Source: a virus. Taken from it: a stretch of 12,078 nucleotides of DNA. The notes beneath the pieces are model-generated. The model was given only the letters and a program-made list of their open reading frames with translations, had not been told where the DNA came from and did not search any database. A program made the position numbers and the translations under genes. Shown here piece by piece: positions 1 to 12,078 of the stretch (within the stretch, counting starts at the first letter, position 1; each line of letters opens with the position of its first letter). The stretch lies in the UHGV virus genome UHGV-0261881, one strand, 5' to 3'.

Positions 1-246
1 GCGGGTAGGTGTACCAAAAATAATGGCGTCGTAATCGGCCAGTTCTTGCGGGGTTGCAACCGGTGCAGTTTGCGTTTTACCGCCTGCTTTTTCAAATAAT
101 TGCGGCGGCATGGTTTCCGGTACACGCTTAACGACAACTTCTGCGCCATCCACTTTGCTTGCACCCTCAGCGACTGCGCGTGCCATCGTTTCAATATGTC
201 CGTACATGGAATAATAAAGCACTAGTATTCTTGCCTTAACACTCAT
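1..246 (-). CDS. wrbA: NAD(P)H:quinone oxidoreductase WrbA, N-terminal 82 codons (3' end runs off the window); first 8 codons supplied by the inserted element
   Basis: Minus-strand translation from ATG at 246-244 gives [82 protein letters not shown]. From VLYYSMYGH onward this matches the WrbA N-terminus as I recall it ([31 protein letters not shown]...). SD aggaga sits 8 nt upstream on the minus strand (plus 254-259). Confidence 0.92.
216..225. other. attL junction (host wrbA side | element side), crossover within or next to AAAGCAC
   Basis: Sequence ggaataatAAAGCAC|tagtattc: left part matches wrbA, right part does not. The same AAAGCAC is found at the right junction. Confidence 0.7.
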
Positions 247-297
247 ATCATTGTTCTCCTGTTCAATGAACCACTTAGATAAGCATAGTCCGAAGAT

Positions 298-1941
298 ATG
301 AAGCTGCTAGTGACATACATCAGGTGGAGTACTAAAGAGCAAGACTCAGGAGACTCCTTAAGACGGCAAACAAACCTCATTGATGCTTTCTACTCTAAGC
401 ACAAAAATGATTATTACCTTCTTCCTGCTCACAGATACGTTGATAAGGGTAAATCTGGTTTTCACCAGCAACATAAGAATCAAGGTTCTGACTTCAGACG
501 TATGTTTGAAAATGTTATGTCTGGGGCTATTCCAGAAGGTTCCTTGATTGTTGTAGAGAACTTTGACCGCTTCAGTAGGGCTGATATCGACACAGCTATA
601 GATGATGTCAGGCAGATACTGAGGAAAGGAGTCTCTATACTGACTCTGGGAGATGGTGAACTCTACGACAAATCAGCATTAACAGACCCTGTGAAGTTGA
701 TTAAGCACATCATCATAGCTGAGCGAGCACATCAGGAATCTCTTGTTAAACAAAAGCGTATAGCTCAGGTCTGGAACCATAAAACACAGCTTGCAAGAGA
801 ACTTAAGAAGCCTATGGGTAAGCAAGCCCCCGGATGGTTAGAGCTATCAGATGATGGTTCACACTACATCGTTGATGAAGATAAAGCGTCACTGGTGAAT
901 ATCATCTATGACAAGCGTCTTTCTGGTATGTCGATGTTTGCTATCTGCAAATGGCTAAACGAACAAGGTTACCCGACCATTAATCAGCGTAAGGTCAGAA
1001 TATCCAAGACTAAGAAACCTGATGGTAACTGGTCAGCATTAAGCGTTAAACACATCCTGACTTCACGAAGTGTATTAGGTTACCTTCCCGCTAAGATTTC
1101 TACAGAAGACCGTAAAACAGTGTTACGTGAAGAAATTGAAGGGTTCTATCCTCAGATTGTCACAGACTCTAAGTTTTACGCTGTACAGCAACTGTTAGAG
1201 GAAACAGGGAAGGGGAAAACATCCAGCGGTGAACACTGGCTATATGTGAACATACTGAAGGGGCTTATCCGTTGTAAGTGTGGGCTTGTAATGACTCCTA
1301 CAGGGATACGTAAACCCGTTTATCAAGGTACTTACCGTTGCAATGGTAATAAGGAGTCCCGTTGTAGCTACGGTACAGTGTCCAGAAAGTTACTTGATAC
1401 ACAGCTTTGTAGTCGTCTGTTTAGCAAACTGTCACAGCTACACGATGAAGCTACCGATACAGCTAAATTAGATGAACTGCAACGCAGACTAAACACCGTT
1501 GATAGTGAACTGGAAAAACTCACTGAGACGCTGATACAGCTTCCTAACATCACTCAGATTCAAGAAGCACTACGGGTTAAACAGGAAGAAAAAGATGAAC
1601 TGATAGTTCAGTTATCACGAGAAAAGGCGAGGGTAAAATCTGTATCAAGCTTGGATTTAAGCGGTCTTGATATGGAGTCTGTAGAGGGGAGAACTGAAGC
1701 CCAGATTATTATTAAGCGTTTGGTGAAAGAGATTGTTGTTTCTGGTAATGAAAAGCTGGTGGATATATATCTTCACAATGGAAATATGATTCGTGGTTTT
1801 CCTCTTGATGGTAAAGATGACCACACCTTAACGCTTGAAGAAGCAACCGATGAGATGCAGTCATTAGATGATATGCTTATTTTTGGTGAACCAGTAACAA
1901 GGATTTATCCTGCTGGTGATATGGAAGAGGTGGACGCTTAG
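298..1941 (+). CDS. Large serine recombinase (integrase), 547 aa
   Basis: N-terminal catalytic motifs YIRWSTKEQ (catalytic Ser), [15 protein letters not shown] and ERAHQESL. Cys-rich stretch IRCKCG...[14 protein letters not shown] consistent with a recombinase zinc ribbon. Coiled-coil-like C-terminal region ([21 protein letters not shown]). ATG start at 298. Position next to the att junction. Confidence 0.88.
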
Positions 1942-1944
1942 GAA

Positions 1945-1960
1945 TTGGTATTGTTACCAA
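1945..1960. terminator. Hairpin between convergent genes (TTGGTA-ttgt-TACCAA), possible bidirectional terminator without a clear U-tract
   Basis: Perfect 6-bp inverted repeat with a 4-nt loop, exactly filling the gap between the integrase stop (1939-1941) and the minus-strand gene stop (1961-1963). Confidence 0.3.
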
Positions 1961-2734
1961 TCAATAAGTGCCCTTCTTATTCGGATTCACACTAAATTTC
2001 CGTAAAGCATTACCCGACTTAAGCACTTTTGAAGCCTGCTCATTAGCTGAGGCTGTGAAGGTGCTTACACCATCTTTCACCGTGACATTTTTAGAGCAAT
2101 TGCTACGGACCCTTAGCGCTTCATCAGATAGCTCAGATGCTGAGTAGCTATACAGTTCCTGACACATCAACATAGGTGCGTTATTGCGTTCAGTAGTCAC
2201 GTTACCCGCATTCTTCTTAGAAGTTGCGCCACCATCATTTGTGGTAGCGGCCTTTCCAGTTGCAGCAGAGATATCAGTCTGACCAACAACAGCTTTAAAG
2301 TTAATTTCCTGAAAAGTTAGCTGGATTCTTAGACCATTTGAAATACCAACATCTTTAGATGCTTTAAAGCTTGTAATAATGGAATCATCAATTTTAATTC
2401 CGTCCTTACAGATAACAGAAATAATTTGCTTCTGGTCACGCCAGCTTTCAAGAGTGTCAATGAAGTTTTCTACTAATTGACCCTGACGAGTTAATAATAA
2501 GCTTCCTTCATAGCCAACTACAACGACACCACTAATAGTGATTGTTCTGGGTGCTCTTTGCACATTATCTGTGACGGTTTGCCCTGATTGCATGTTCTGT
2601 GTAGTCACCTGCATAGGGCTATCAAATTCCATGTTTTCAGTTGCTGATAAGGTTAAGAAGGCATCTACATTGTCTCTTAAGTGGAAATAGATGCCATCTT
2701 TGCCACTGTAACGAATCTGATTAGAGTAAATCAT
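1961..2734 (-). CDS. Hypothetical protein, 257 aa; weak resemblance to a phage distal-tail/structural protein given its position after the tape-measure-like gene
   Basis: Long ORF. The track's TTG start at 2755 is replaced here by the ATG at 2734-2732, which has a strong SD (aaggag, 7 nt upstream on the minus strand). Beta-rich-looking sequence ([15 protein letters not shown]). No catalytic motif recognised. Confidence 0.6.
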
Positions 2735-2813
2735 TAAATTCTCCTTTGATTTCAAAGGCTTAGTGTATTTTAATCATTTTTAACCAAGCCTTTGATATAT
2801 AAGTATTTTCTCT

Positions 2814-2895
2814 GTTAAGCGTGAGCTACGTAAATTCTATTTTTCAGTGCAGGTATTAACTTTGCTTTATTCACGTAGCATTCGACTATTCATAG
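2814..2895 (-). promoter_or_regulatory. Promoter-like cassette, copy A, upstream of the 257-aa gene
   Basis: About 37 bp nearly identical to copy B (taagcgtgagctacgtaaattctatttttcagtg). On the minus strand it reads ...ctgaaaaaTAGAATttacgtagc..., a -10-like TAGAAT with no good -35. Dyad arms GCTACGTAAAT (2825-2835) and ATTCACGTAGC (2869-2879) flank and overlap the -10. Confidence 0.45.
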
Positions 2896-2968
2896 TTGAA
2901 TCGTCATACTAGATAAAGATTAATAGATTGCCATGTGTGGCAATAAATATTAGTAGTTCTAACATTGT

Positions 2969-5044
2969 TTATTCCTCTGGGTAAGCTGAGCTAATCAAGG
3001 TATCTTCCTGCATACGATTAATATGCGATGTGGTTCTTTCATCAATAACCTTTCCATCAAGTACCGTCTGAGTTGTGATATTGATTGTCTGAGGCTGAAT
3101 GTTTACTGACGGCTTGATAACCTTTAAATCTTGTGTGAATGTTTCCACTCGACCTTTCAGATTATTTAATGCTTCAGGTGAAAACTGTGGAACATCTTTT
3201 GATTTGCCCTGAACCATAGCCCATAAAACAGCGGCTAAAGAGTTCATGTCACCAGACAATGCTTGGTCTGTAGGTTCCACCTTTGACCTTACAACTTTGT
3301 CAATTGGATTATCTGACTTACTCATCTGACGTTCATAGAACGGTTTAACAATGGAGTTAATCACATCAGTTGCCATACCGACAATCATTACTTTGGTAAT
3401 TGCATCAGCTACAGATAATTTTCCTTTACCACCTTCAACACTACCGGAACGTGAATTAATTCTTCCTGCTGCTGTATTTGCTACATTTCCAAGCGTGGAA
3501 ATAGCCCTAATTAAGCTCCAGATGCCACCTACAGCACCAATACCAGACCTTACAGCAACAATACCAGCAAGTCCCTTTAATGCACTTAACAGGCCATTTG
3601 CGATACCATCAGCTACAGCTTTTTGAGTGTCATTTAATTCTCTGTAAGCAAGGGTCACTCTGTCAAAGAATCCCTGCACTCGGTAGCTAATCGTGGTTAA
3701 ATCATCAATACCGTTTGACATACTTTTCATCAAGTCGCCAAAATGTTCACCAAGATTTTTAGATTGCCCACCTAGCGAATTAAGTAAATTAGTCAGTGAC
3801 CTTGTAAAGTCTGTTAAACCTTCCTGTGAACCGTCGAACATTAAGGCCAGATTATTATTCCATGAATTAGAAAGGCGGCCTAACTGCGTCTGAGTAGAGT
3901 TAATAATCTTTTCCCATCCACCAGCTTTATCAATCATCCTTCCCATTTCAGCGGATACTTTAGGAAGAACATCTTTAGAAAGAACTTTACCGTCTTTCAT
4001 AGCCTTGTCTAATTCTTCTGTAGTCATCCCAAGGCTTCTGGCAAATAACTGGAAAGCACCTGCCATTCTGTCACCTAATTGACCACGTAGCTCTTCAGCC
4101 TGAATCTTCCCTTTAGAAGCCATCTGCTCGAAAGCTTTCAGAATCCCGTTAATTTCATCAGTACTTAAACCCATTAATCTGGATGTGCCAATCACATTAC
4201 TAAATAAGGATTCTTTCTGGCCTGCATCCATATCACCAGCACCAGCGGAAAACTTAGCAAAACTGCTTAATGTTTCAATCTGGTCAACACCAGTATTATT
4301 AGCAAGATTCTTAACAAATTCTGTAGCTCGTTTAGCACCTTCATCACCTAAAACGAATTGTGCCGCTCGTTGTGATGCTTCTTTTTTCAGACCAACCTCC
4401 ATAATCTTCCTGTAAGCTTCTAAGGCTGTCTGAAAACTATAAATGGCTGTACCTGCTTTGATTGCACTTGTAGCTAATACATCCAGACCATTCGAAGCAT
4501 TTTCACTGTGATTATTTTTGCTGGTGGTCTTGTTAAACTTAGAAAGTGTTTCACGAAGAGACTGATTTAATTTTGCTAACTCACGATTAAAAGCTTCGTT
4601 TCCAAGTGTCTTGGATTTACTACTTAATGCGTAAAACTGACTCTTAATGTATTTCTCGACAATTGGGTTAAGACCTTTCAGCTTGCTCATATTCGCTGAA
4701 TAAGCTGCTGTGATTGCTCTGTTTCCGCTAATTCGTGGTTGCCTTGATTGTTTTGGAGGATTAACAGTGTCATTAAATCTGGTGGCAAACTGAAATGCTT
4801 TTGTGCTTCTTGCTCTCTGTTCAATCTTGTCAAAGGTCTTATTAAACTTCCTTTCAAGCTGCCCTAAAGAACTTGTCAGATTGCTGTCAAGTTGCTTGGT
4901 ATCGACCTTAAACGCTCTATTCAAATTGCGTTCAATTCTTTGTGCTGACTGCAAAGCTGCCTTTTCAACTCTTTGCAAGCCCTTAATAACGTTTTCACTG
5001 AAACTAAGTTCAACGATAAAACTATCAACTGTGAATTTGCTCAT
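2969..5044 (-). CDS. Tape-measure-like protein (phage tail length tape measure domain), 691 aa
   Basis: Central block GLSTDEINGILKAFEQMASKGKIQAEELRGQLGDRMAGAFQLFARSLGMTTEELDKAMKDGKV resembles the tape-measure core domain. Gly/Ala-rich hydrophobic segment (GLLSALKGLAGIVAVRSGIGAVGGIWSLIRAISTLG) and coiled-coil-like N-terminus are typical of tape measure proteins. ATG start with SD agaggtg. Confidence 0.65.
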   Translation of the reverse strand: MSKFTVDSFIVELSFSENVIKGLQRVEKAALQSAQRIERNLNRAFKVDTKQLDSNLTSSLGQLERKFNKTFDKIEQRARSTKAFQFATRFNDTVNPPKQSRQPRISGNRAITAAYSANMSKLKGLNPIVEKYIKSQFYALSSKSKTLGNEAFNRELAKLNQSLRETLSKFNKTTSKNNHSENASNGLDVLATSAIKAGTAIYSFQTALEAYRKIMEVGLKKEASQRAAQFVLGDEGAKRATEFVKNLANNTGVDQIETLSSFAKFSAGAGDMDAGQKESLFSNVIGTSRLMGLSTDEINGILKAFEQMASKGKIQAEELRGQLGDRMAGAFQLFARSLGMTTEELDKAMKDGKVLSKDVLPKVSAEMGRMIDKAGGWEKIINSTQTQLGRLSNSWNNNLALMFDGSQEGLTDFTRSLTNLLNSLGGQSKNLGEHFGDLMKSMSNGIDDLTTISYRVQGFFDRVTLAYRELNDTQKAVADGIANGLLSALKGLAGIVAVRSGIGAVGGIWSLIRAISTLGNVANTAAGRINSRSGSVEGGKGKLSVADAITKVMIVGMATDVINSIVKPFYERQMSKSDNPIDKVVRSKVEPTDQALSGDMNSLAAVLWAMVQGKSKDVPQFSPEALNNLKGRVETFTQDLKVIKPSVNIQPQTINITTQTVLDGKVIDERTTSHINRMQEDTLISSAYPEE

Positions 5045-5057
5045 TCATGTTTCACCT

Positions 5058-5140
5058 CTTTAAGCGTGAGCTACGTAAATTCTATTTTTCAGTGTGGATA
5101 TTAGCTTTACAGATTTCATGTAGCACACATAGGATTCGAT
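5058..5140 (-). promoter_or_regulatory. Promoter-like cassette, copy B, immediately upstream of the tape-measure-like gene
   Basis: Same core as copy A. -10-like TAGAAT on the minus strand (plus 5079-5084) sits about 35 nt upstream of the ATG at 5044. Lies between an intrinsic terminator (5160-5201) and the gene start. Confidence 0.5.
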
Positions 5141-5159
5141 AGAAGACTATCTCATATAC

Positions 5160-5201
5160 AAAAAAGGGAGAAACTACCGATATCACTCGATAATCTCTCC
5201 C
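5160..5201 (-). terminator. Rho-independent terminator after the 67-aa gene
   Basis: Minus strand reads GGGAGAgattatcgagtgatatcggtagttTCTCCC followed by TTTTTT: 6-bp GC-rich stem plus U-tract, about 25 nt downstream of the stop at 5227. Confidence 0.6.
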
Positions 5202-5226
5202 GTTGATTTTCACCCAACCAATCTTT

Positions 5227-5430
5227 TTACCTAACCAGATAATAATTACCATCTTCACCGACAATCTGACAATCACTTGGTAATTTATCAAGACACCATT
5301 TAGCGATTCTTCTGATTCTGTTATTTTGCTTAGAGGTGGATGATTTGATTCGTTTTGGTTTGTTGGGTTGTTCTTTCAGTCGTTCACTAATTGCCTTGAT
5401 GAGTTCATAGCGTTCTGTTAAATCAATCAT
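5227..5430 (-). CDS. Hypothetical small basic protein, 67 aa
   Basis: ATG start with a strong SD (aaggaggtg). N-terminus MIDLTERYEL is paralogous to the upstream 102-aa protein (MSDLTERDKR). Confidence 0.55.
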   Translation of the reverse strand: MIDLTERYELIKAISERLKEQPNKPKRIKSSTSKQNNRIRRIAKWCLDKLPSDCQIVGEDGNYYLVR

Positions 5431-5455
5431 TCACCACCTCCTTTTTAATTCGATT

Positions 5456-5764
5456 TTAATCTAAGTAGTGTATACACTCGACACCGCGTTCATTCTTTTG
5501 AATTTCATAACGTAGTGAAAGACCAGTTTGATAATACACAGTATCAAGCTTATTTATCTTATCCTTGAGTTCGATAAGAAGTCGCGTTAAATCATCCCGA
5601 CCATCACACTTTAGTTCGGCAAGAGGCTTTTCTTCCATACGACCAATAAGATATTCAGTGACCTCCTGAATATCACCAAGAGTCATTTTAATTTCATTGA
5701 ACCTATCTTCAAAAGGCTCCATCACCCATTTCATTCTTTTATCGCGTTCTGTTAAATCACTCAT
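5456..5764 (-). CDS. Hypothetical small acidic protein, 102 aa
   Basis: ATG start. Its start overlaps the stop region of the upstream 234-aa gene (5764 versus 5773), suggesting translational coupling. Shares the M-x-DLTER N-terminus with the 67-aa protein. Confidence 0.6.
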   Translation of the reverse strand: MSDLTERDKRMKWVMEPFEDRFNEIKMTLGDIQEVTEYLIGRMEEKPLAELKCDGRDDLTRLLIELKDKINKLDTVYYQTGLSLRYEIQKNERGVECIHYLD

Positions 5765-5772
5765 TATTCACC

Positions 5773-6477
5773 TCAAACAGCCTTGCTAAATTCTCGTGGA
5801 ACACTCAGAAAATCATTGAAGCTGATAATCTGTGCCAACTCTTGACGGTACTCCTTAGCCAGCGCTTGATGGTCACTAATCAGCTTAGCCAGTCTTGATT
5901 TCAGCAATTTAATCTCATTTTCTCTTGCTTTCATCAGTTTCTCTTTGGCAATTTCTTCAAGCTCAGCTTGTGATTTATCAGCAACAATTAGAGACAGTTG
6001 ATGTGGCGCTCTGATGGCCCTTTCCGTACGAATAACCCTTTGACCTTCTGGTAAATCTGCAATCACTTTACCAATCTCTACAGGGTCATACCCCCAACCG
6101 TCACGGTCTAGTCGAGAGAAATAAGCATAAGGATTGGTTTGAAGCTCCATCAAAATAGCCATTTCGTCGATTTCGTCTTCAAGCTTGGACTGAATTTTCT
6201 CGTAAACACTTCTCATTGCTTCTTGAGAGTCTTTAATAGCTTGGAAATATCGGCGTTGCAGCTTCAGTTTCAAATCAAGCTCACATTTCTCATTCATCGA
6301 AAAATCAATTTCAACTCTTGGAATCTCGAGTGGTTCTGGTGGAATATATGGACCTTTATTTACTTCGTGTGATTCCCGCCAAGCTCTATCAAAAGATTCA
6401 CGCAAAGTTAATTCGTGAATATCAAGTGCACTTGGTCTGTTCTCAACAATCATTTCATTTTCATCACGGATAGCCAT
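5773..6477 (-). CDS. Hypothetical protein, 234 aa, charged and coiled-coil-rich
   Basis: Long ORF with ATG start. Its SD (agaagagga) lies inside the 3' arm of an 11-bp hairpin. No motif recognised. Confidence 0.6.
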   Translation of the reverse strand: MAIRDENEMIVENRPSALDIHELTLRESFDRAWRESHEVNKGPYIPPEPLEIPRVEIDFSMNEKCELDLKLKLQRRYFQAIKDSQEAMRSVYEKIQSKLEDEIDEMAILMELQTNPYAYFSRLDRDGWGYDPVEIGKVIADLPEGQRVIRTERAIRAPHQLSLIVADKSQAELEEIAKEKLMKARENEIKLLKSRLAKLISDHQALAKEYRQELAQIISFNDFLSVPREFSKAV

Positions 6478-6487
6478 TAATATTTTT

Positions 6488-6556
6488 CCTCTTCTAAGAT
6501 AATTTACGTTTCAGTTTTTAAAAAGCACACCTGACAACCTACGAACTTAGAAGAGG
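6488..6556 (-). promoter_or_regulatory. 5'-UTR hairpin sequestering the SD of the 234-aa gene
   Basis: Perfect 11-bp inverted repeat CCTCTTCTAAG (6488-6498) / CTTAGAAGAGG (6546-6556) with a 47-nt loop. On the minus-strand mRNA the 3' arm contains the SD, 10 nt before the ATG. Confidence 0.5.
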
Positions 6557-6594
6557 CTTAAAAGGCGTTTGCCAAGTATGCTTTTTAAAAGCTG

Positions 6595-6631
6595 AAAAAA
6601 GCCCTAGATAACTAAAACGCTATAAAGGGCT
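6595..6631 (-). terminator. Rho-independent terminator ending the upstream minus-strand operon
   Basis: Minus strand reads AGCCCTttatagcgttttagttatctAGGGCT followed by TTTTT(T). Confidence 0.5.
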
Positions 6632-6949
6632 AAGGTGAAGAAATTAAAACATCTAAAGGATTCAATAACGAATGAACAAGAGTACTTTTCGAGATGACCT
6701 CTCAGGTTATATAAGAGGTCATGTAGCGAAAAGCATTGCACCTTTCCAAATCAGAATATCCATCCATCGGATTATTGAAAATATGATTTTAGGAAGAGTT
6801 GCTCTTCCCTATAATTAAAATTATGTCATACTTAAGGTTATTTGTCAACAGCCTTTTAACAGATTGGTAACATCAATTTCTATTTACTGTGTTGCCTACC
6901 CAGCAACCAACAAATAAGCCAAGCAACGTCCAAGCAATTATTAAGCCCA

Positions 6950-7279
6950 TTAGTGAACCCTCACAGAATCCGTAACCAAAATATTGTCGCTGTACAGGAT
7001 TGTCACAGCACCTTTCAAAAATTGCTCTGGGGAAATACTGTATTTGTTCGTTTGCTCGATAACCAATCTTTTCATGTTGCTGTCTTTAATTGGTAGCATC
7101 ATTCGAGGCTCGTTAAACTCCACCGACTGAATAAAGTCAGAGATGCTTTCCGCATTATCAGTCATTAACTCTAACAACTTATCAAAGTCAACGCTAACAC
7201 CTACATCAGCGAAAGCCTGAATCATCATGGCGGTGTCGGTATCAATAAAAATCTGTAGTGGGAAGTTTAATTCTCTCAT
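6950..7279 (-). CDS. Hypothetical protein, 109 aa
   Basis: ATG start with SD aaggag. Lies immediately downstream (minus strand) of structured repeat copy 1. Confidence 0.55.
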   Translation of the reverse strand: MRELNFPLQIFIDTDTAMMIQAFADVGVSVDFDKLLELMTDNAESISDFIQSVEFNEPRMMLPIKDSNMKRLVIEQTNKYSISPEQFLKGAVTILYSDNILVTDSVRVH

Positions 7280-7304
7280 TTCTTAAAATCTCCTTTTTAC
7301 CAGA

Positions 7305-7430
7305 CCTCCTCAATCGCTCTGTAACGAGCTAAACAGTCTTTTTCAGGGGTAGCCTGTACAGTGGTATTACCCACCCTAAAATAAGGTAGTTTTTTGCGTT
7401 AGAATGCGATTGAGAGCGTCTGAGAAGCTG
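7305..7430 (+). repeat. Structured inverted-terminus repeat (SIR), copy 1, between the HNH-like gene and the 109-aa gene
   Basis: Aligns base-for-base in the same order with copy 2 (same orientation) and with the reverse complement of copy 3. Shared blocks GCTCTGTAACGAG, CAGGGGTAG, TACCCACCCTAAAATAA, GTTAGAATGCG and AGAGCGTCTGAGAAGCT. Termini are mutually complementary (CTCAATCGC / GCGATTGAG). Confidence 0.75.
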
Positions 7431-7435
7431 TTTTT

Positions 7436-7723
7436 CTAATTTCTCTTAAAGTCTCGGACTTGCATAAGATTTTTTGGTCTGGTATCGGCTCTGTTACCAT
7501 TTCGATGGATAATTTGCTTGTTGGATTGATAGCCATGATAAAGGAACCAGACAACATATTTCACGTAGAAAGTATATCGGCCTATATTAAATGTTTTGTT
7601 GCCGTAGTCGTCGGTATTTATCGTGACTGACTCTCCATCAGACCAGCACAGGGAATCACTGGATTCATCATAGATAAGGTGTTCTGTAAAATATCGTCTA
7701 ACATCTTCATGCCAAGGTTTCAT
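7436..7723 (-). CDS. Small HNH-family endonuclease-like protein, 95 aa
   Basis: C-terminal YVKYVVWFLYHGYQSNKQIIHRNGNRADTRPKNLMQV resembles the HNH motif of phage-type HNH nucleases (consensus-like ...W..hnG...IDHINGN..DNR..NLR). ATG start overlaps the upstream gene by 4 nt. Confidence 0.55.
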   Translation of the reverse strand: MKPWHEDVRRYFTEHLIYDESSDSLCWSDGESVTINTDDYGNKTFNIGRYTFYVKYVVWFLYHGYQSNKQIIHRNGNRADTRPKNLMQVRDFKRN

Positions 7724-7935
7724 AAAACCTCCTCACCCCAATAACCTAATTCAATCTTGTGACGCTCAAACCATTCCGGTTTAACTGCTGTTTTCAGTAC
7801 TTCATTTGGGTCAATGGCTTTAATGAAAATATCTTTTGAGTTATGGATGTCACCGAATCCGTTTCCTTTAATCAGGAGGTCGGAGATGTAGCGAATCATT
7901 TTATCTGTGTGGTATTCAAAGGTAACGCATAGCAT
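7720..7935 (-). CDS. Hypothetical protein, 71 aa
   Basis: ATG start overlapping the upstream stop (TAATG). Part of a tightly coupled operon. Confidence 0.5.
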   Translation of the reverse strand: MLCVTFEYHTDKMIRYISDLLIKGNGFGDIHNSKDIFIKAIDPNEVLKTAVKPEWFERHKIELGYWGEEVL

Positions 7936-8213
7936 TAAACCTCCATCGCTAACTTGTGAATCTTAAGACTCAATAGACGGGCAATATCAATTTTAAAGCC
8001 GTTAAGTGCCTTCAAAGTATCTAAAGCGTCCTGACTAATTCGGATGTGCTTACGACCTTTAGAGACTGGATATTTAAGTAAATCCGACTCAGTGACCTCT
8101 TTAGCAATTGCAAGTTGCATAATAGTTTGATGAGGTAAGTTAGTTGCTTGTTTAATTCTGGTAAGCTCGTTAAAAGCTTCCTCTGAAATACGGGTTAATG
8201 TGTGTTTATTCAT
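7935..8213 (-). CDS. Putative ribbon-helix-helix (RHH)-like DNA-binding protein, 92 aa
   Basis: N-terminus KHTLTRISEEAFNELTRIKQATNLPHQTIMQLAIAKE fits a strand-helix-helix pattern like CopG/Arc-type RHH. A second similar pattern (HIRISQDALDTLKALNGFKIDIARLL) follows. Stop of the upstream gene directly abuts its ATG. Confidence 0.4.
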   Translation of the reverse strand: MNKHTLTRISEEAFNELTRIKQATNLPHQTIMQLAIAKEVTESDLLKYPVSKGRKHIRISQDALDTLKALNGFKIDIARLLSLKIHKLAMEV

Positions 8214-8768
8214 TTAAAATTCCTCTGTAACTAAATACGGGTCAAACTCGAAATCTGGTTCACTAATCGTAAGGCTGATATTGCCCACTTCCGCATGATG
8301 ATTAATTGTCTCAATAACTTTCATGCAAATAGTGGCTAAGTTAGCGCAATATTTATCGCTTGGTAATTCATAGCTAAGTCTGGTTGCTTGTCTTTGAAGA
8401 TGGCTCGTCACTGTGCTTGAGCTAATCTTATCAAGGCTTCGAAGCAAATAGAAAATCTTCCGGTGATAGTTATCCCTTCCAAAGCTGCGACAAGTGCCGA
8501 TAATTACATCTTCAATTCGTGATGGTAGTTGCTCGTAAGAATCAAAGCCCATCAAGAAAGTTTTTAAAGTATTTTCTTTTTCTTTGCGTGTTGGCATATA
8601 TCTGTCTCGTGGCGTAATGCTACGAATGACCGCTTCAATGTTCTTACGTTCGGATTTGCTAAAGGTTGGGACTTCGTAGCTGGTGGGGGTGTCTGTGTAG
8701 CTGTAACCGTTGCTTCTGTTTCTTGCTTTGCTCTCTTCAAGAAACTTTTGAAAATCTTTGTCGTTCAT
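8214..8768 (-). CDS. Hypothetical protein, 184 aa, first gene of the operon
   Basis: ATG start 43 nt downstream of a consensus-like promoter. No motif recognised. Confidence 0.6.
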   Translation of the reverse strand: MNDKDFQKFLEESKARNRSNGYSYTDTPTSYEVPTFSKSERKNIEAVIRSITPRDRYMPTRKEKENTLKTFLMGFDSYEQLPSRIEDVIIGTCRSFGRDNYHRKIFYLLRSLDKISSSTVTSHLQRQATRLSYELPSDKYCANLATICMKVIETINHHAEVGNISLTISEPDFEFDPYLVTEEF

Positions 8769-8817
8769 TCATAAGCTGGCCCTTATAATTGTTAATTTCC
8801 TGTTAACTATATATACA

Positions 8818-8846
8818 ATCTTAGCAGTTTCAAAGGCTAATGTCAA
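8818..8846 (-). promoter_or_regulatory. Sigma70-type promoter of the minus-strand four-gene operon
   Basis: Minus strand reads TTGACA (plus 8846-8841), a 17-nt spacer, then TAAGAT (plus 8823-8818). Confidence 0.6.
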
Positions 8847-8854
8847 GCATTTTT

Positions 8855-8884
8855 TTAACATTTGATTAACATTTATGGTATAAT
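8855..8884 (+). promoter_or_regulatory. Extended -10 promoter firing rightward into the ORF-poor region
   Basis: TTAACA (8855-8860), 18-nt spacer, TGgTATAAT (8876-8884). Divergent from the operon promoter. Confidence 0.55.
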
Positions 8885-8917
8885 GGTTTTATGAGAGAGG
8901 GAAAATATAAAGGCGTG

Positions 8918-8975
8918 GCTATGAGGTTTATTCGATAAACCGAATCAACTATGAGAATGGTCACATGGTTATTGC
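8918..8975 (+). repeat. Direct repeat Rep2, copy A (contains cgaatcaactatgag)
   Basis: Homologous to 10493-10592 in the same orientation (ctatgagRtt ... cgaatcaactatgag ... aatggttatt). Confidence 0.6.
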
Positions 8976-8986
8976 ATTGCACACAG

Positions 8987-9082
8987 GCCTCTTCAATCGC
9001 TCTGTAACGAGTTAAATGGCCTCTTCAGGTCAACTCATAAGGTCAGGTACTTTTTGTATCAGAATGCGATTGAGAGCGTCTT
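8987..9082 (+). repeat. Structured repeat (SIR), copy 2 (shorter), forming the leader of a small ORF
   Basis: Shares the 5' block cttcaatcGCTCTGTAACGAG and 3' block AGAATGCGATTGAGAGCGTCT with copy 1. The central part differs. Terminal 8-bp complementarity TCAATCGC / GCGATTGA. Confidence 0.7.
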
Positions 9083-9095
9083 ACAAGGAAAACTA

Positions 9096-9272
9096 ATGGT
9101 AAACCTCCCTCCTGAGCTGGGGTCACCTGATGTTTGGGCTGGTGGAGGTGTGGGTCTGATTGCAGGCCTGCTACTTCGCTACGTCCTCGTCAGAGTGCTT
9201 GTTGTCTTTAAACTGTTCGGTCGTACATGGACGCTTGACCTTAAGGATAATGACCACACAGACCCCCGTTAA
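9096..9272 (+). CDS. Putative small membrane protein, 58 aa
   Basis: ATG at 9096 with SD aagga 7 nt upstream. Translation MVNLPPELGSPDVWAGGGVGLIAGLLLRYVLVRVLVVFKLFGRTWTLDLKDNDHTDPR has one hydrophobic helix and a charged tail. Weak hairpin (CCCCT/AGGGG, 9286-9309) downstream. Confidence 0.35.
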   Translation: MVNLPPELGSPDVWAGGGVGLIAGLLLRYVLVRVLVVFKLFGRTWTLDLKDNDHTDPR

Positions 9273-9391
9273 ACCCCCTTCAAAACCCCTATACCATCTC
9301 GTACAGGGGTATCTTTAGCATTTTGTGCTATCTATTAAAAAATAGCTTGACAGAACCGGAAAGCTGTATTTATCAAGTATTCACCTCTCTG

Positions 9392-9564
9392 ACAGTGATT
9401 TCTAAAAATACTTATTTTTCAATGAGTTGTAATCACCCATATATAGAGAACTGACAAGTCTCTTCACAGAGAACTCTGTAACCTTAACAGTAATTTCTAA
9501 AAATACTTATTTTTCAATGAGTTGTAATCACCCAATATATAAGGCTGTCCAGTACCTTCACAGA
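9392..9564 (+). repeat. Tandem direct repeat, two units of ~80 bp with a 95-bp period
   Basis: Units 9392-9470 and 9487-9564 share a ~55-bp near-identical core (acagtRatttctaaaaatacttatttttcaatgagttgtaatcacccatatata) and a downstream cttcacaga. A GCTCTGTAAC-like motif lies between the units (9474-9482). Confidence 0.7.
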
Positions 9565-10375
9565 TGACTTCAAGCCTTCTTAGCTATCCACTAAGCGGGA
9601 GAAGAGCGATAACCCCAGAGAGGGAAGCTCCCTTCTAATTGGTATTGTTATGAGGATGCTTCATCCGAATCATCTACCAATCCCTAAACCGACTCTCTTA
9701 ACCAGCCCTTTACGTTATTCGTTCACAGTGTTGATAAGTGGTTTTGCCCTCTGTTTCTGTTATCATCGGGCTTACCTTATCAGGGCTTTGAAATGCCCTG
9801 TAACTCCCCTCTTAACGGGAGAGAAAGAACATAGTGACCCCAAGCGAAGCGCCCCTCTAAAAAGATTTTTTAGCTACTTTGTTTAAAAGCACATCAAACG
9901 ATACATTTTATTGATTTAGGTCAAAGACAAAAGCATTGACAAAATGGTAAGATTGTTCACATGACCTTACTTAACAGATTCTTAAGAGCTTTGAAACGGC
10001 CTATTTAACAAGGTCACTACCTACGGTTCTTCGTTTTCCTTCTTTCTAGGTAGTCATCTGTTAAGAGTTTTTCAGTCTTACTCTTAAGAATCACTGTTAA
10101 GATGATACTCTCCCCTTCGGGTTATATCGTATCTCTTCTCCCGTTAAACACCCCTTCCTAACTATCTACATAATCACTTCTAAGAATCTTACAAGGTAAT
10201 ATCCAGACCTCTTATAGTTGACCTGATACAGAAGTTTTACAGGCATACTCTCTAGGTTACTAATCGGGTGCTATCAAGGGCCACTAAACGAGAGAGGGGA
10301 TATGTGACCATAGGGGAACCCCTCCTGTTAAAAAGGCCACTTAGAAGTCTGAGACTTTAGTAAAATCTGTGAATA

Positions 10376-10492
10376 TAGCTTCTCAGGCGCTCTGTAACGC
10401 ATTCTAAGCGATTTTACCCCTTTATTTTAAGGTGGGTGGTACATCCCTATAGACTACCCCTAAAAATGGGGTTAAAACTCGCTACAGAGCTT
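10376..10492 (-). repeat. Structured repeat (SIR), copy 3, inverted relative to copies 1 and 2
   Basis: The reverse complement of 10371-10500 aligns along its length with copy 1 (blocks GCTCTGTAGCGAG, AGGGGTAG, TACCACCCACCTTAAAATAA, GCTTAGAATGCG, AGAGCGCCTGAGAAGCT). Termini are complementary (GCTCTGTAGCG / CGTTACAGAGC). Confidence 0.7.
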
Positions 10493-10592
10493 TCTATGAG
10501 ATTAGCTTCATGAAGTAATTCATTACTGAATCACCTAATCGAATCAACTATGAGGCTTGGTAAGATTGTGCAAAATCTGTACAATGGTTATT
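10493..10592 (+). repeat. Direct repeat Rep2, copy B
   Basis: See Rep2 copy A. Here it abuts SIR copy 3. Confidence 0.55.
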
Positions 10593-10850
10593 TGGCTTCT
10601 GAAAATTTTTACAAAAATCATAGTAGCCCTCTTTGAATCTCATCTTCCCCGAATCTTCAAAAATATCTGACAGATGTCTGTAGCTGCTAAGTACCCGTCA
10701 CACCAGCTATGTGACCCCCTTTGCAAAAAAGCCAAATATCTATTGACTTTCTATGTGAATTGCTATAAAGGCATCTATCTAGACCTTTAACTGTATAAAT
10801 ACACATGACAACAAACGCCCGTTAAGTGTCTATATAAAAAGGTAGCTGTA

Positions 10851-10895
10851 GCTATAGACAACAATTGTGATAATTGATTTAATGGCTATAGACAA
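10851..10895 (+). promoter_or_regulatory. Two direct GCTATAGACAA repeats upstream of the small recombinase gene (candidate operator or binding sites)
   Basis: Identical 11-mers at 10851-10861 and 10885-10895 (34-bp spacing). Related TATATAG-like motifs at 10828-10836 and 10914-10922. Confidence 0.4.
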
Positions 10896-10935
10896 GCAAG
10901 ACAGACCTTTGTTGACTATATAGAGAGATAAGAAC

Positions 10936-11505
10936 ATGCGTACATTCCTTTATGCTCGTGTATCAGTTGATGACCTCACCACACAAAACCAAGTAGAAGC
11001 TGTTAAACGTGCTGGTTATGAAGTCAAACCTTCACGAGTGATTGAGGAAGTTATTAGTGGTGCTACACCAGCTATGGACAGACCACAATTTGTAAAGCTG
11101 GTGGATAAGCTGGAAGAAGGTGATTGTCTTGTAGTGACCAAGATTGACCGCTTAGGAAGGGATAACATTGATGTACAGAAGACCGTCACAATGTTACTGG
11201 ATATGGGTGTGAAGCTAATTTGTTTAGACCTGCCTGTAAAAGACCTTTCAAGTGCTGAAGGTAAACTTATCCTTCAACTATTCAGTACCTTTGCAGAGTT
11301 TGAACTTAACCGCATCAGAGAGCGAACCAGAGAGGGCTTAGAACGAGCTAAAGCACAAGGTAAGGTGTTGGGTCGTCCTGTAGCTAAAAACACTACAGAG
11401 GCCGTTTTAGAGCATAAGGCAAAGGGATTGTCACAAAGTCAGGTTGCAAAGCTTCTGAATCTCTCTGTGAGAACGGTTAGCCGTCACTGGACAAAGACAC
11501 TGTAA
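10936..11505 (+). CDS. Small serine recombinase (resolvase/invertase family), 189 aa
   Basis: Motifs YARVS (catalytic Ser), VVTKIDRLGRD and ERTREGLERAKAQGKVLGRP, plus a C-terminal helix-turn-helix (GLSQSQVAKLLNLSVRTVSRH). ATG start. Confidence 0.88.
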   Translation: MRTFLYARVSVDDLTTQNQVEAVKRAGYEVKPSRVIEEVISGATPAMDRPQFVKLVDKLEEGDCLVVTKIDRLGRDNIDVQKTVTMLLDMGVKLICLDLPVKDLSSAEGKLILQLFSTFAEFELNRIRERTREGLERAKAQGKVLGRPVAKNTTEAVLEHKAKGLSQSQVAKLLNLSVRTVSRHWTKTL

Positions 11506-11526
11506 GAAACTTAGTAGCATCTTCAT

Positions 11527-11550
11527 AGCCTCCTTCATGGGGGCTTTTTT
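11527..11550 (+). terminator. Rho-independent terminator after the small recombinase gene
   Basis: AGCCTCC-ttcat-GGGGGCT stem (one G-U pair) followed by TTTTTT, about 22 nt after the stop. Confidence 0.6.
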
Positions 11551-11558
11551 GTATCCAC

Positions 11559-11626
11559 TCTCTAAGCGTGTCCTACGCAAAATCTCCTGAACACTTACCC
11601 ACCCTCAGAAATAACTTTCACGTAAG
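11559..11626. repeat. Diverged third copy of the promoter-like cassette (copy C), containing a TTACCCACCCT block shared with the SIR repeats
   Basis: ctctaagcgtgtcctacgcaaaatctc resembles the cassette A/B core. The loop contains ttacccaccctcagaaataa, similar to TACCCACCCTAAAATAA in SIR copy 1. 3' arm ctttcacgtaag. Confidence 0.45.
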
Positions 11627-11937
11627 AAACTGTTAAGCAGCTTGATAGTTATTCTGTGTGACCAAACATCTATATATCGTTATATAGTCCTGTATATAGC
11701 ACTTTTCTAGGAGTCGAGAGAGGGACGACTAACACGATACAGTTTACCCTGAAAAGAGACTTCACAGATTCTCTATATATTTCAATAAGTTAGGCTAAAA
11801 AGAGACTATACCGATACTGCATAGAATCTGTGTAAAACTGCTTAGATACTTGGGAAAATGCCTTTAAATTGAATAGGGATTCACCTGATATTGTCCTGTT
11901 ATTAACAGGTAGTTGAATGTACGTGTTTAGCTATGTA

Positions 11938-11947
11938 AAAGCACCAG
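11938..11947. other. attR junction (element side | host wrbA side)
   Basis: Sequence ctatgtaaAAAGCAC|cagaactttagccat: the right part is the reverse complement of the native wrbA start ATGGCTAAAGTTCTGGTGC. Confidence 0.7.
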
Positions 11948-12078
11948 AACTTTAGCCATTTCTAACCACTCCTCGTGTTATCTCTATTCCGTAGCGATTC
12001 GCTACCACTTATTTAAAGATAAGACGTCCTTTTCAGAGTGCAAATTTCACAACCACTTATTTGATTTATAACAACTTT
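11945..12078 (-). other. wrbA: Displaced native wrbA start codon (11959-11957), first codons, SD and native upstream region
   Basis: Minus strand reads gaggagtggttagaaATGGCTAAAGTTCTGGTGC..., giving MAKVLV, the native WrbA N-terminus. It is separated from the rest of wrbA (1-222) by the element. Confidence 0.8.

Follow-up and report, generated by a model that had tools for sequence, protein, structure and literature searches.

Does insertion of a mobile element at the Escherichia coli wrbA locus split the promoter of the element's integrase gene (int), so that the gene is expressed differently on the chromosome and in an excised circle? A sequence-only reading of this DNA had proposed such a split, on the grounds that int starts close to the left junction and that its upstream sequence would be the hybrid 5' end of wrbA in the integrated state and the element's right end in a circle. 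We followed up the proposal in the whole stretch of 12,078 nucleotides (UHGV virus genome UHGV-0261881), here called the window, and in its relatives.

Junctions, attachment site, and the rebuilt wrbA start

When the two ends of the window were aligned with the K-12 wrbA locus lacking the insertion, an element of 11,722 bp (223..11944) was placed in the E. coli gene, with K-12 identity stopping at 222 on the left and restarting at 11938 on the right. The attP/attB identity in the window is 7 bp, AAAGCAC, and the first element-specific base is 223, which leaves 75 bp before the int ATG at 298, in agreement with the earlier estimate of about 75 bp. The features of the two ends are as follows (strand given where a feature has one).

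1..246, minus strand: the part of the hybrid wrbA coding sequence lying in the window; by translation, codons 1 to 8 (246..223) are element derived and the remainder is host
207..215, plus strand: host-derived, extended −10-like TGgAATAAT, antisense within wrbA codons (score 4.7, chance level)
216..222: attL core AAAGCAC, from alignment with the empty site and a coordinate check
223..247: P' half-site of attP/attL; 224-242 (AGTATTCTTGCCTTAACAC) is conserved in the integrase homologs of 61 to 65% identity
244..260, minus strand: start codon (246..244) and Shine-Dalgarno sequence AGGAGA (260..255) of hybrid wrbA, supplied by the element
247..297: divergent leader of 51 bp between hybrid wrbA and int, containing the conserved octamer AAGCATAG at 281-288
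298..1941, plus strand: int, a large serine recombinase of 547 aa (PF00239, PF07508, phrog_95)
11912..11937: P arm of attP/attR (GTTGAATGTACGTGTTTAGCTATGTA), which moves with the integrase cassette
11938..11944: attR core AAAGCAC, from alignment with the empty site and a coordinate check
11945..11959, minus strand: displaced native 5' end of wrbA (ATG 11959..11957), its start MAKVLVL stranded at the right junction

The catalytic domain of Int (PF00239, E = 5.6e-11) covers residues 5 to 155, and the catalytic serine is presumed to be residue 11, in YIRWSTKEQ. PF07508 scored 71.9 bits, and the zinc ribbon PF13408 scored 22.1 bits, under the cut-off of 25.3. The closest solved structure is the phiC31 integrase, a distant relative (E = 1.7e-9 over the catalytic region). 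Homologs with 61 to 65% identity occur in Klebsiella, Enterobacter, Erwinia, and metagenomes, and all of them adjoin a rebuilt wrbA of 205 to 206 aa, with a gap to int of only 40 to 45 bp.

Comparison of homologous systems set the crossover point, on the assumption that related integrases cleave at equivalent positions; scanning the att sites blindly for symmetry gave no decision. Right junctions were readable for two relatives, and the attP/attB identity is AAAGCAC in the window, ACCAG in the Klebsiella relative L010, and AC only in the Erwinia relative L017. The crossover dinucleotide is most likely AC at 221-222, because AC is the only sequence common to the identity blocks of the three systems. 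The distal P' motif TTAACAC (236-242) mirrors GTGTTTA (11923-11929) symmetrically about this crossover, and the arms, read outward, agree at 11 of 20 positions by hand count. Short sites, imperfect inverted arms around a non-palindromic dinucleotide, and a few base pairs of attP/attB identity fit a large-serine-recombinase module; the anatomy is that expected for a serine-integrase attP, and 223-247 is its P' half-site. As in phiC31-type modules, attP lies directly upstream of int, with short att sites, imperfect inverted arms, and a 2-bp crossover. Our comparison thus adds a precisely mapped serine-integrase site, with crossover AC, a 26-bp P arm, and a P' arm of about 25 bp.

Left of 223, the window reads wrbA antisense, so that the sequence upstream of the integrated int is indeed the hybrid 5' end of that gene. 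The element-encoded N terminus substitutes for MAKVLVLYYSM, and since the element supplies eight codons and a ribosome-binding site, the host wrbA remains intact; in strain FAM21845, the equivalent hybrid gene is called an intact wrbA by the NCBI annotation pipeline. Unlike in phiC31-type modules, the P' arm thus doubles as the replacement N terminus and ribosome-binding site of a host protein, an observation that we add here. Because wrbA is rebuilt on the other strand, the 75 bp consist of 24 bp of hybrid wrbA coding sequence and the 51-bp divergent leader, which holds two ribosome-binding regions; the int Shine-Dalgarno sequence is weak in this window. The 75 bp ahead of int are, then, half an attachment site plus a rebuilt wrbA start, and an int gene that begins within a few dozen bases of its attachment site is a common and already known arrangement.

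The most conserved block of the int-wrbA leader is the octamer at 281-288 (AAGCGTAG in relatives). wrbA is natively sigma-S dependent, and the reverse complement of the octamer, CTAYGCTT, found about 41 nt before the hybrid wrbA ATG, resembles the sigma-S extended −10 consensus. The octamer could equally belong to the translation start region of int; a position-weight scan found no conserved promoter for hybrid wrbA. The native wrbA promoter region, beyond 11959, now reads into the element's right end. At the other side of int, 19 bp (1942-1960), with no terminator, separate the int stop codon from the end of a leftward operon (8768 to 1961), whose transcripts could run antisense through int into hybrid wrbA.

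A genome-derived viral contig (L006, positions 2900-3290) carries the element in tandem with another prophage, whose right end has a 35-bp wrbA-like stub finishing in the same core; wrbA can therefore hold two elements side by side. This contig, the sole one from an IMG/VR integrase search, was considered as an attP and rejected owing to the tandem arrangement with a stub-carrying prophage. A genome-contig scan with a single protein query gave no match.

The excised circle and the integrase cassette

The circular joint predicted from the window ends (GCTATGTAAAAGCACTAGTATTC) is matched exactly in three metagenome contigs (L019, L020, and L021) and is absent from IMG/VR viral contigs. L020 (ERZ506742 NODE_633; 11,233 nt) has an exact 55-nt terminal overlap, and its alignment to the window shows the whole element in circularly permuted form, corresponding to a circle of 11,178 bp. 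Compared with the joint rebuilt from the window ends, it is exact from the core through 223-297; further upstream, its P arm is 96% and its backbone right end 90% identical to the window. The exact joint and the circularly permuted contig together establish that the excised circle exists and that, as had been supposed, it puts the right end upstream of int. Excision to an attP-bearing circle is precise and conservative, as in a large-serine-recombinase module, and its proof in nature is an addition of this work. L021 (OOBX01000469.1), of which 6 kb was covered, is 23,009 nt long; this is about twice unit length, and the contig may be two copies joined head to tail.

The right end of the element carries the following features.

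11527..11545, plus strand: intrinsic terminator, after the small serine recombinase gene
11658..11911: noncoding backbone right end, conserved across different integrases, with TATATAG motifs, CTTCACAGA motifs, and repeats
11895..11909: palindrome CCTGTTATTAACAGG, the last conserved backbone feature, abutting the cassette boundary between 11911 and 11912

The same backbone occurs in E. coli with other serine integrases, at yecE (L003 and L005) and directly upstream of tonB (L004), and its homology to the window begins at about 1961-1976 and reaches about 11909-11914. In comparisons of the window with L020, L021, and L001, identity is 88 to 90% in the backbone right end and 96 to 100% in the P arm, core, 75 bp, and int. 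This contrast indicates that the DNA from the P arm through int is mobile as a single, self-contained cassette. The cassette comprises 11912-11944 plus 223 to about 1960, and its boundary is marked by a sharp identity step (88 to 90% against 97 to 100%) after the palindrome. The window's cassette is carried by 59 complete genomes, and FAM21845 and 14EC020 are examples of strains with the element at wrbA. The palindrome was compared by inspection with LexA-box and CRP-site consensus sequences, and both assignments were discarded because the spacing is wrong. In L003-type elements, present in at least eight complete genomes, a segment of 0.9 kb with a 278-aa opposite-strand gene lies between the palindrome and a shortened P arm.

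In the tonB-type element L004, the start codon of tonB falls within a 13-bp core (TCAAGGGTCATTG) present at 2347-2359 and 13545-13557. The DNA natively upstream of tonB, which holds the Fur-regulated promoter, is shifted 11 kb to attR, and tonB is now preceded by element DNA with TGcTACAAT and TACAAT boxes. An important host gene has apparently had its promoter replaced by the tonB-type element. Near the right end of the window, 10936-11505 encodes a small serine recombinase of the resolvase/invertase type (189 aa), which in L004 is on the opposite strand (12432-12980) and is absent from some family members. Multimer resolution, inversion, and cassette exchange are possibilities for its role.

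Search for the int promoter

Promoter-like sites were sought with a consensus scan and a position-weight scan, both based on sigma-70 models. In 223-297, the best position-weight site, TTGCCT-18-TCTCCT, scored 6.4, with 0.27 such sites expected per 75 nt. Relatives gave stronger candidates: TTAACA-17-GATAAT in L017 and L018 scored 9.4 (0.025 expected per 75 nt), the unrelated yecE cassette has TTTAAA-17-TACAAT with a score of 8.2 (0.043 expected per 75 nt), and L009, L013, and L015 carry weaker forms of the element-side site. The −35 boxes in relatives lie 12 to 14 nt inside the element, overlapping the distal P' motif, and in every case the top-scoring site in the 160 nt ahead of int is element-side; the tonB-type cassette has no comparable promoter-like site. 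In the window, 20 nt separate TTAACA (236-241) from the nearest −10-like sequence, TTCAAT (262-267), and the relatives' promoter geometry is broken because the hybrid wrbA N terminus is 12 nt shorter than theirs. TTAACA may be conserved solely as an integrase-binding motif.

These comparisons do not bear out an integrase promoter split by integration, since 223-297 holds no above-chance site and the candidates in relatives are wholly element-side. The wider interpretation stands in part: on integration, all sequence ahead of 223 is exchanged, and the circle is real, but the sequence does not support a split promoter. Comparative evidence favors a promoter that would be undivided by the crossover and would overlap predicted integrase-binding DNA.

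We therefore lean, with a confidence that stops just short of an even chance, toward the following explanation. The stretch 223-297 is the P' half-site plus a compact divergent leader. Recombination at AC (221-222) leaves these 75 bp joined to int in both states, and only the sequence upstream is swapped, wrbA codons on the chromosome for the 26-bp P arm and backbone right end in the circle. The most likely source of int transcripts would be a weak element-side promoter that overlaps the P' arm and works at a low level differing little between the two states; if so, bound integrase could repress its own gene. The direction of recombination, integration versus excision, would then be set by a directionality factor and not by int transcription. 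Besides the mapped junctions, crossover, and circle, the conserved P' arm, the element-side sites of relatives, the self-contained cassette, and a right end with a terminator and no detected rightward promoter speak for this account; the broken geometry in the window, the possible integrase-binding role of TTAACA, the tonB-type cassette, and the weak int Shine-Dalgarno sequence speak against it.

Such a layout has a precedent in KplE1 (CPS-53), where the promoter of intS lies across attL and is under autoregulation by both integrase and the directionality factor (Panis et al. 2010, PMC2951348); this arrangement has been reported as widespread among tyrosine integrases next to tRNA genes (PMC2951348). 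As in KplE1, int is the first gene inside attL and reads inward, and its candidate promoter overlaps predicted recombinase-binding DNA, for which reason autoregulation would be expected here as well. KplE1, however, has a tyrosine integrase with arm-type sites and a DNA-binding directionality factor and lies beside a tRNA gene, whereas the present element has a large serine recombinase and a site of about 50 bp in a protein-coding gene, and its promoter is only predicted and falls below significance in the window. A second precedent is the PLE of Vibrio cholerae, whose large serine recombinase has its own promoter and is expressed constitutively in the integrated state, with excision under the control of a phage-encoded directionality factor (PMC6002521). 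PLE logic requires int expression in the integrated state and so fits the element-side promoter that we prefer. Both are small chromosomal elements with a large serine recombinase, and a link with a virulent myovirus is suspected for the present one as well; on the other hand, the two share no sequence relationship, PLE integrates into Vibrio cholerae repeats (VCRs), and the helper dependence of the present element is putative.

State dependence could also run from the host side. The extended −10-like TGgAATAAT at 207-215 is present only in attB and attL and is a weak candidate for an int promoter that would work in the integrated state alone; int would then be read from host DNA on the chromosome and its expression would drop in the circle, the yecE-type equivalent being read-through from the co-oriented yecD-yecE operon. 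This sequence lies just upstream of the crossover and is fixed by wrbA coding constraint in all relatives, and the yecE-type int is co-oriented with the interrupted host gene. Yet its score is at chance level, integration after transfer needs integrase in the circular state, and the wrbA-type and tonB-type cassettes diverge from the host gene, leaving no logic common to the three. We regard this explanation as very unlikely.

The converse would be a circle-specific boost from the right end. In ICEclc, excision fuses the strong outward promoter Pcirc upstream of the weak Pint (reviewed in PMC5812530), and here too excision puts the element's far end upstream of the integrase gene. An outward right-end promoter fused to int only in the circle would boost integrase for reintegration after transfer. 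The real circle, which sets 11658-11944 upstream of int, speaks for this, as do the ICEclc precedent (PMC5812530), the E. coli cassette without a recognizable promoter of its own, and a right end that is conserved whichever integrase is present and has an excess of TATATAG, including copies on the plus strand at 11681 and 11693. Against it, the plus strand of 11550-11944 has no site reaching 9/12 of the consensus and no position-weight score above 7.2, which is chance density; the sole 9/12 match in this interval (11834..11805) points leftward. Whereas Pcirc was shown experimentally, no outward promoter is detectable in this right end, and the candidate region is 250 to 330 nt from the int ATG. 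Moreover, in the L003-type variant the 0.9-kb segment with its opposed gene parts the right end from attP, so the right end is not an obligatory upstream partner of int; this spacing argues against an obligatory backbone promoter for int and is compatible with read-through. In the circle, the terminator at 11527-11545 would limit rightward read-through toward attP. Taken together, a Pcirc-like promoter appears unlikely.

The conserved right end and a possible Felix O1 link

The earlier description of the right end as rich in TATATAG and repeats was borne out: TATATAG occurs nine times against 1.9 expected, four of the nine copies lying in 11670-11779, and direct and inverted repeats are present in this part as well. 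A count of nine was reached in none of 200 shuffles, and CTTCACAGA-like motifs number 18 against 3.9 expected. Folding of either strand gave z-scores of −0.2 and −0.4, with no RNA-structure signal, which makes an RNA gene in the right end unlikely. The right end had no Rfam match and, by blastn, no match among phage records. Its conservation across integrases and its motif enrichment mark it as clearly functional DNA, and since it shows no RNA signal and no Rfam match, it more likely holds protein-binding, replication, or packaging sites.

Within the element, TATATAG is confined to the noncoding right third (8807-11779). This part includes about 2.2 kb (8770-10935) with no credible open reading frame, conserved in relatives, that may be an origin or a regulatory region; it holds a tandem duplication of about 95 nt (9392-9475 and 9487-9569). 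Exact plus-strand copies of CTTCACAGA lie at 9462, 9556, and 11760. The only Rfam hit, to MIR9563, was subthreshold (35.5 bits; gathering score, 90) and is probably due to chance; it marks a plus-strand hairpin at 6499-6612, within the leftward operon's gap at 6478-6949.

The minus strand of 1961-5044 codes for two tail proteins, a tape measure protein of 691 aa and a Dit-like baseplate protein of 264 aa. The latter shares 76% identity with the protein whose gene adjoins the tape measure gene in Felixounavirus phages such as wV8 and PHB11; the former matches its Ounavirinae counterparts at about 30% identity along its entire length. No capsid, terminase, or obvious replication gene was recognized in the element. 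This gene content suggests a satellite or a defense island aimed at Felix O1-like virulent phages; we found no description of the element family in the literature.

If such phages act as helpers, TATATAG-type motifs in the noncoding right third might be recognized as promoter or cis-acting sites during Felix O1-like infection and int boosted only after induction, mainly on the circle. The tail-protein relationships and the enrichment of TATATAG in the element's noncoding DNA are consistent with this idea. So is the distribution of the motif in phage wV8 (L022), where seven of the eight copies in the first 45 kb cluster at 15179-15427, a 250-bp stretch in the 1.65-kb noncoding gap between gp27 and gp28; the cluster may be a cis-acting site common to element and phage. 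However, copies of the motif occur in either orientation, the first 45 kb of wV8 shows no overall enrichment, the cluster there could equally be a replication or packaging site, and the element has no extended DNA similarity to any phage record. Helper control of int is, in our judgment, a long shot.

Little is at stake in the proximity of int to its attachment site as such, the known consequences of which are an autoregulated integrase (KplE1) or a boost confined to the circle (ICEclc); the surrounding element family is of more interest. In the boldest reading, this would be an undescribed satellite or defense-island family of Felix O1-like phages, about 11 to 12 kb in size and with interchangeable cassettes, in which the right end, with its palindrome and TATATAG-type motifs, controls the integrase through the circle or a helper. 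We consider that full combination decidedly improbable; if it were true, integrase output would switch with the element's physical state, whichever cassette is plugged in. The wider interest may lie in a family that swaps its cassettes among wrbA, yecE, and tonB and carries Felix O1-type tail genes.
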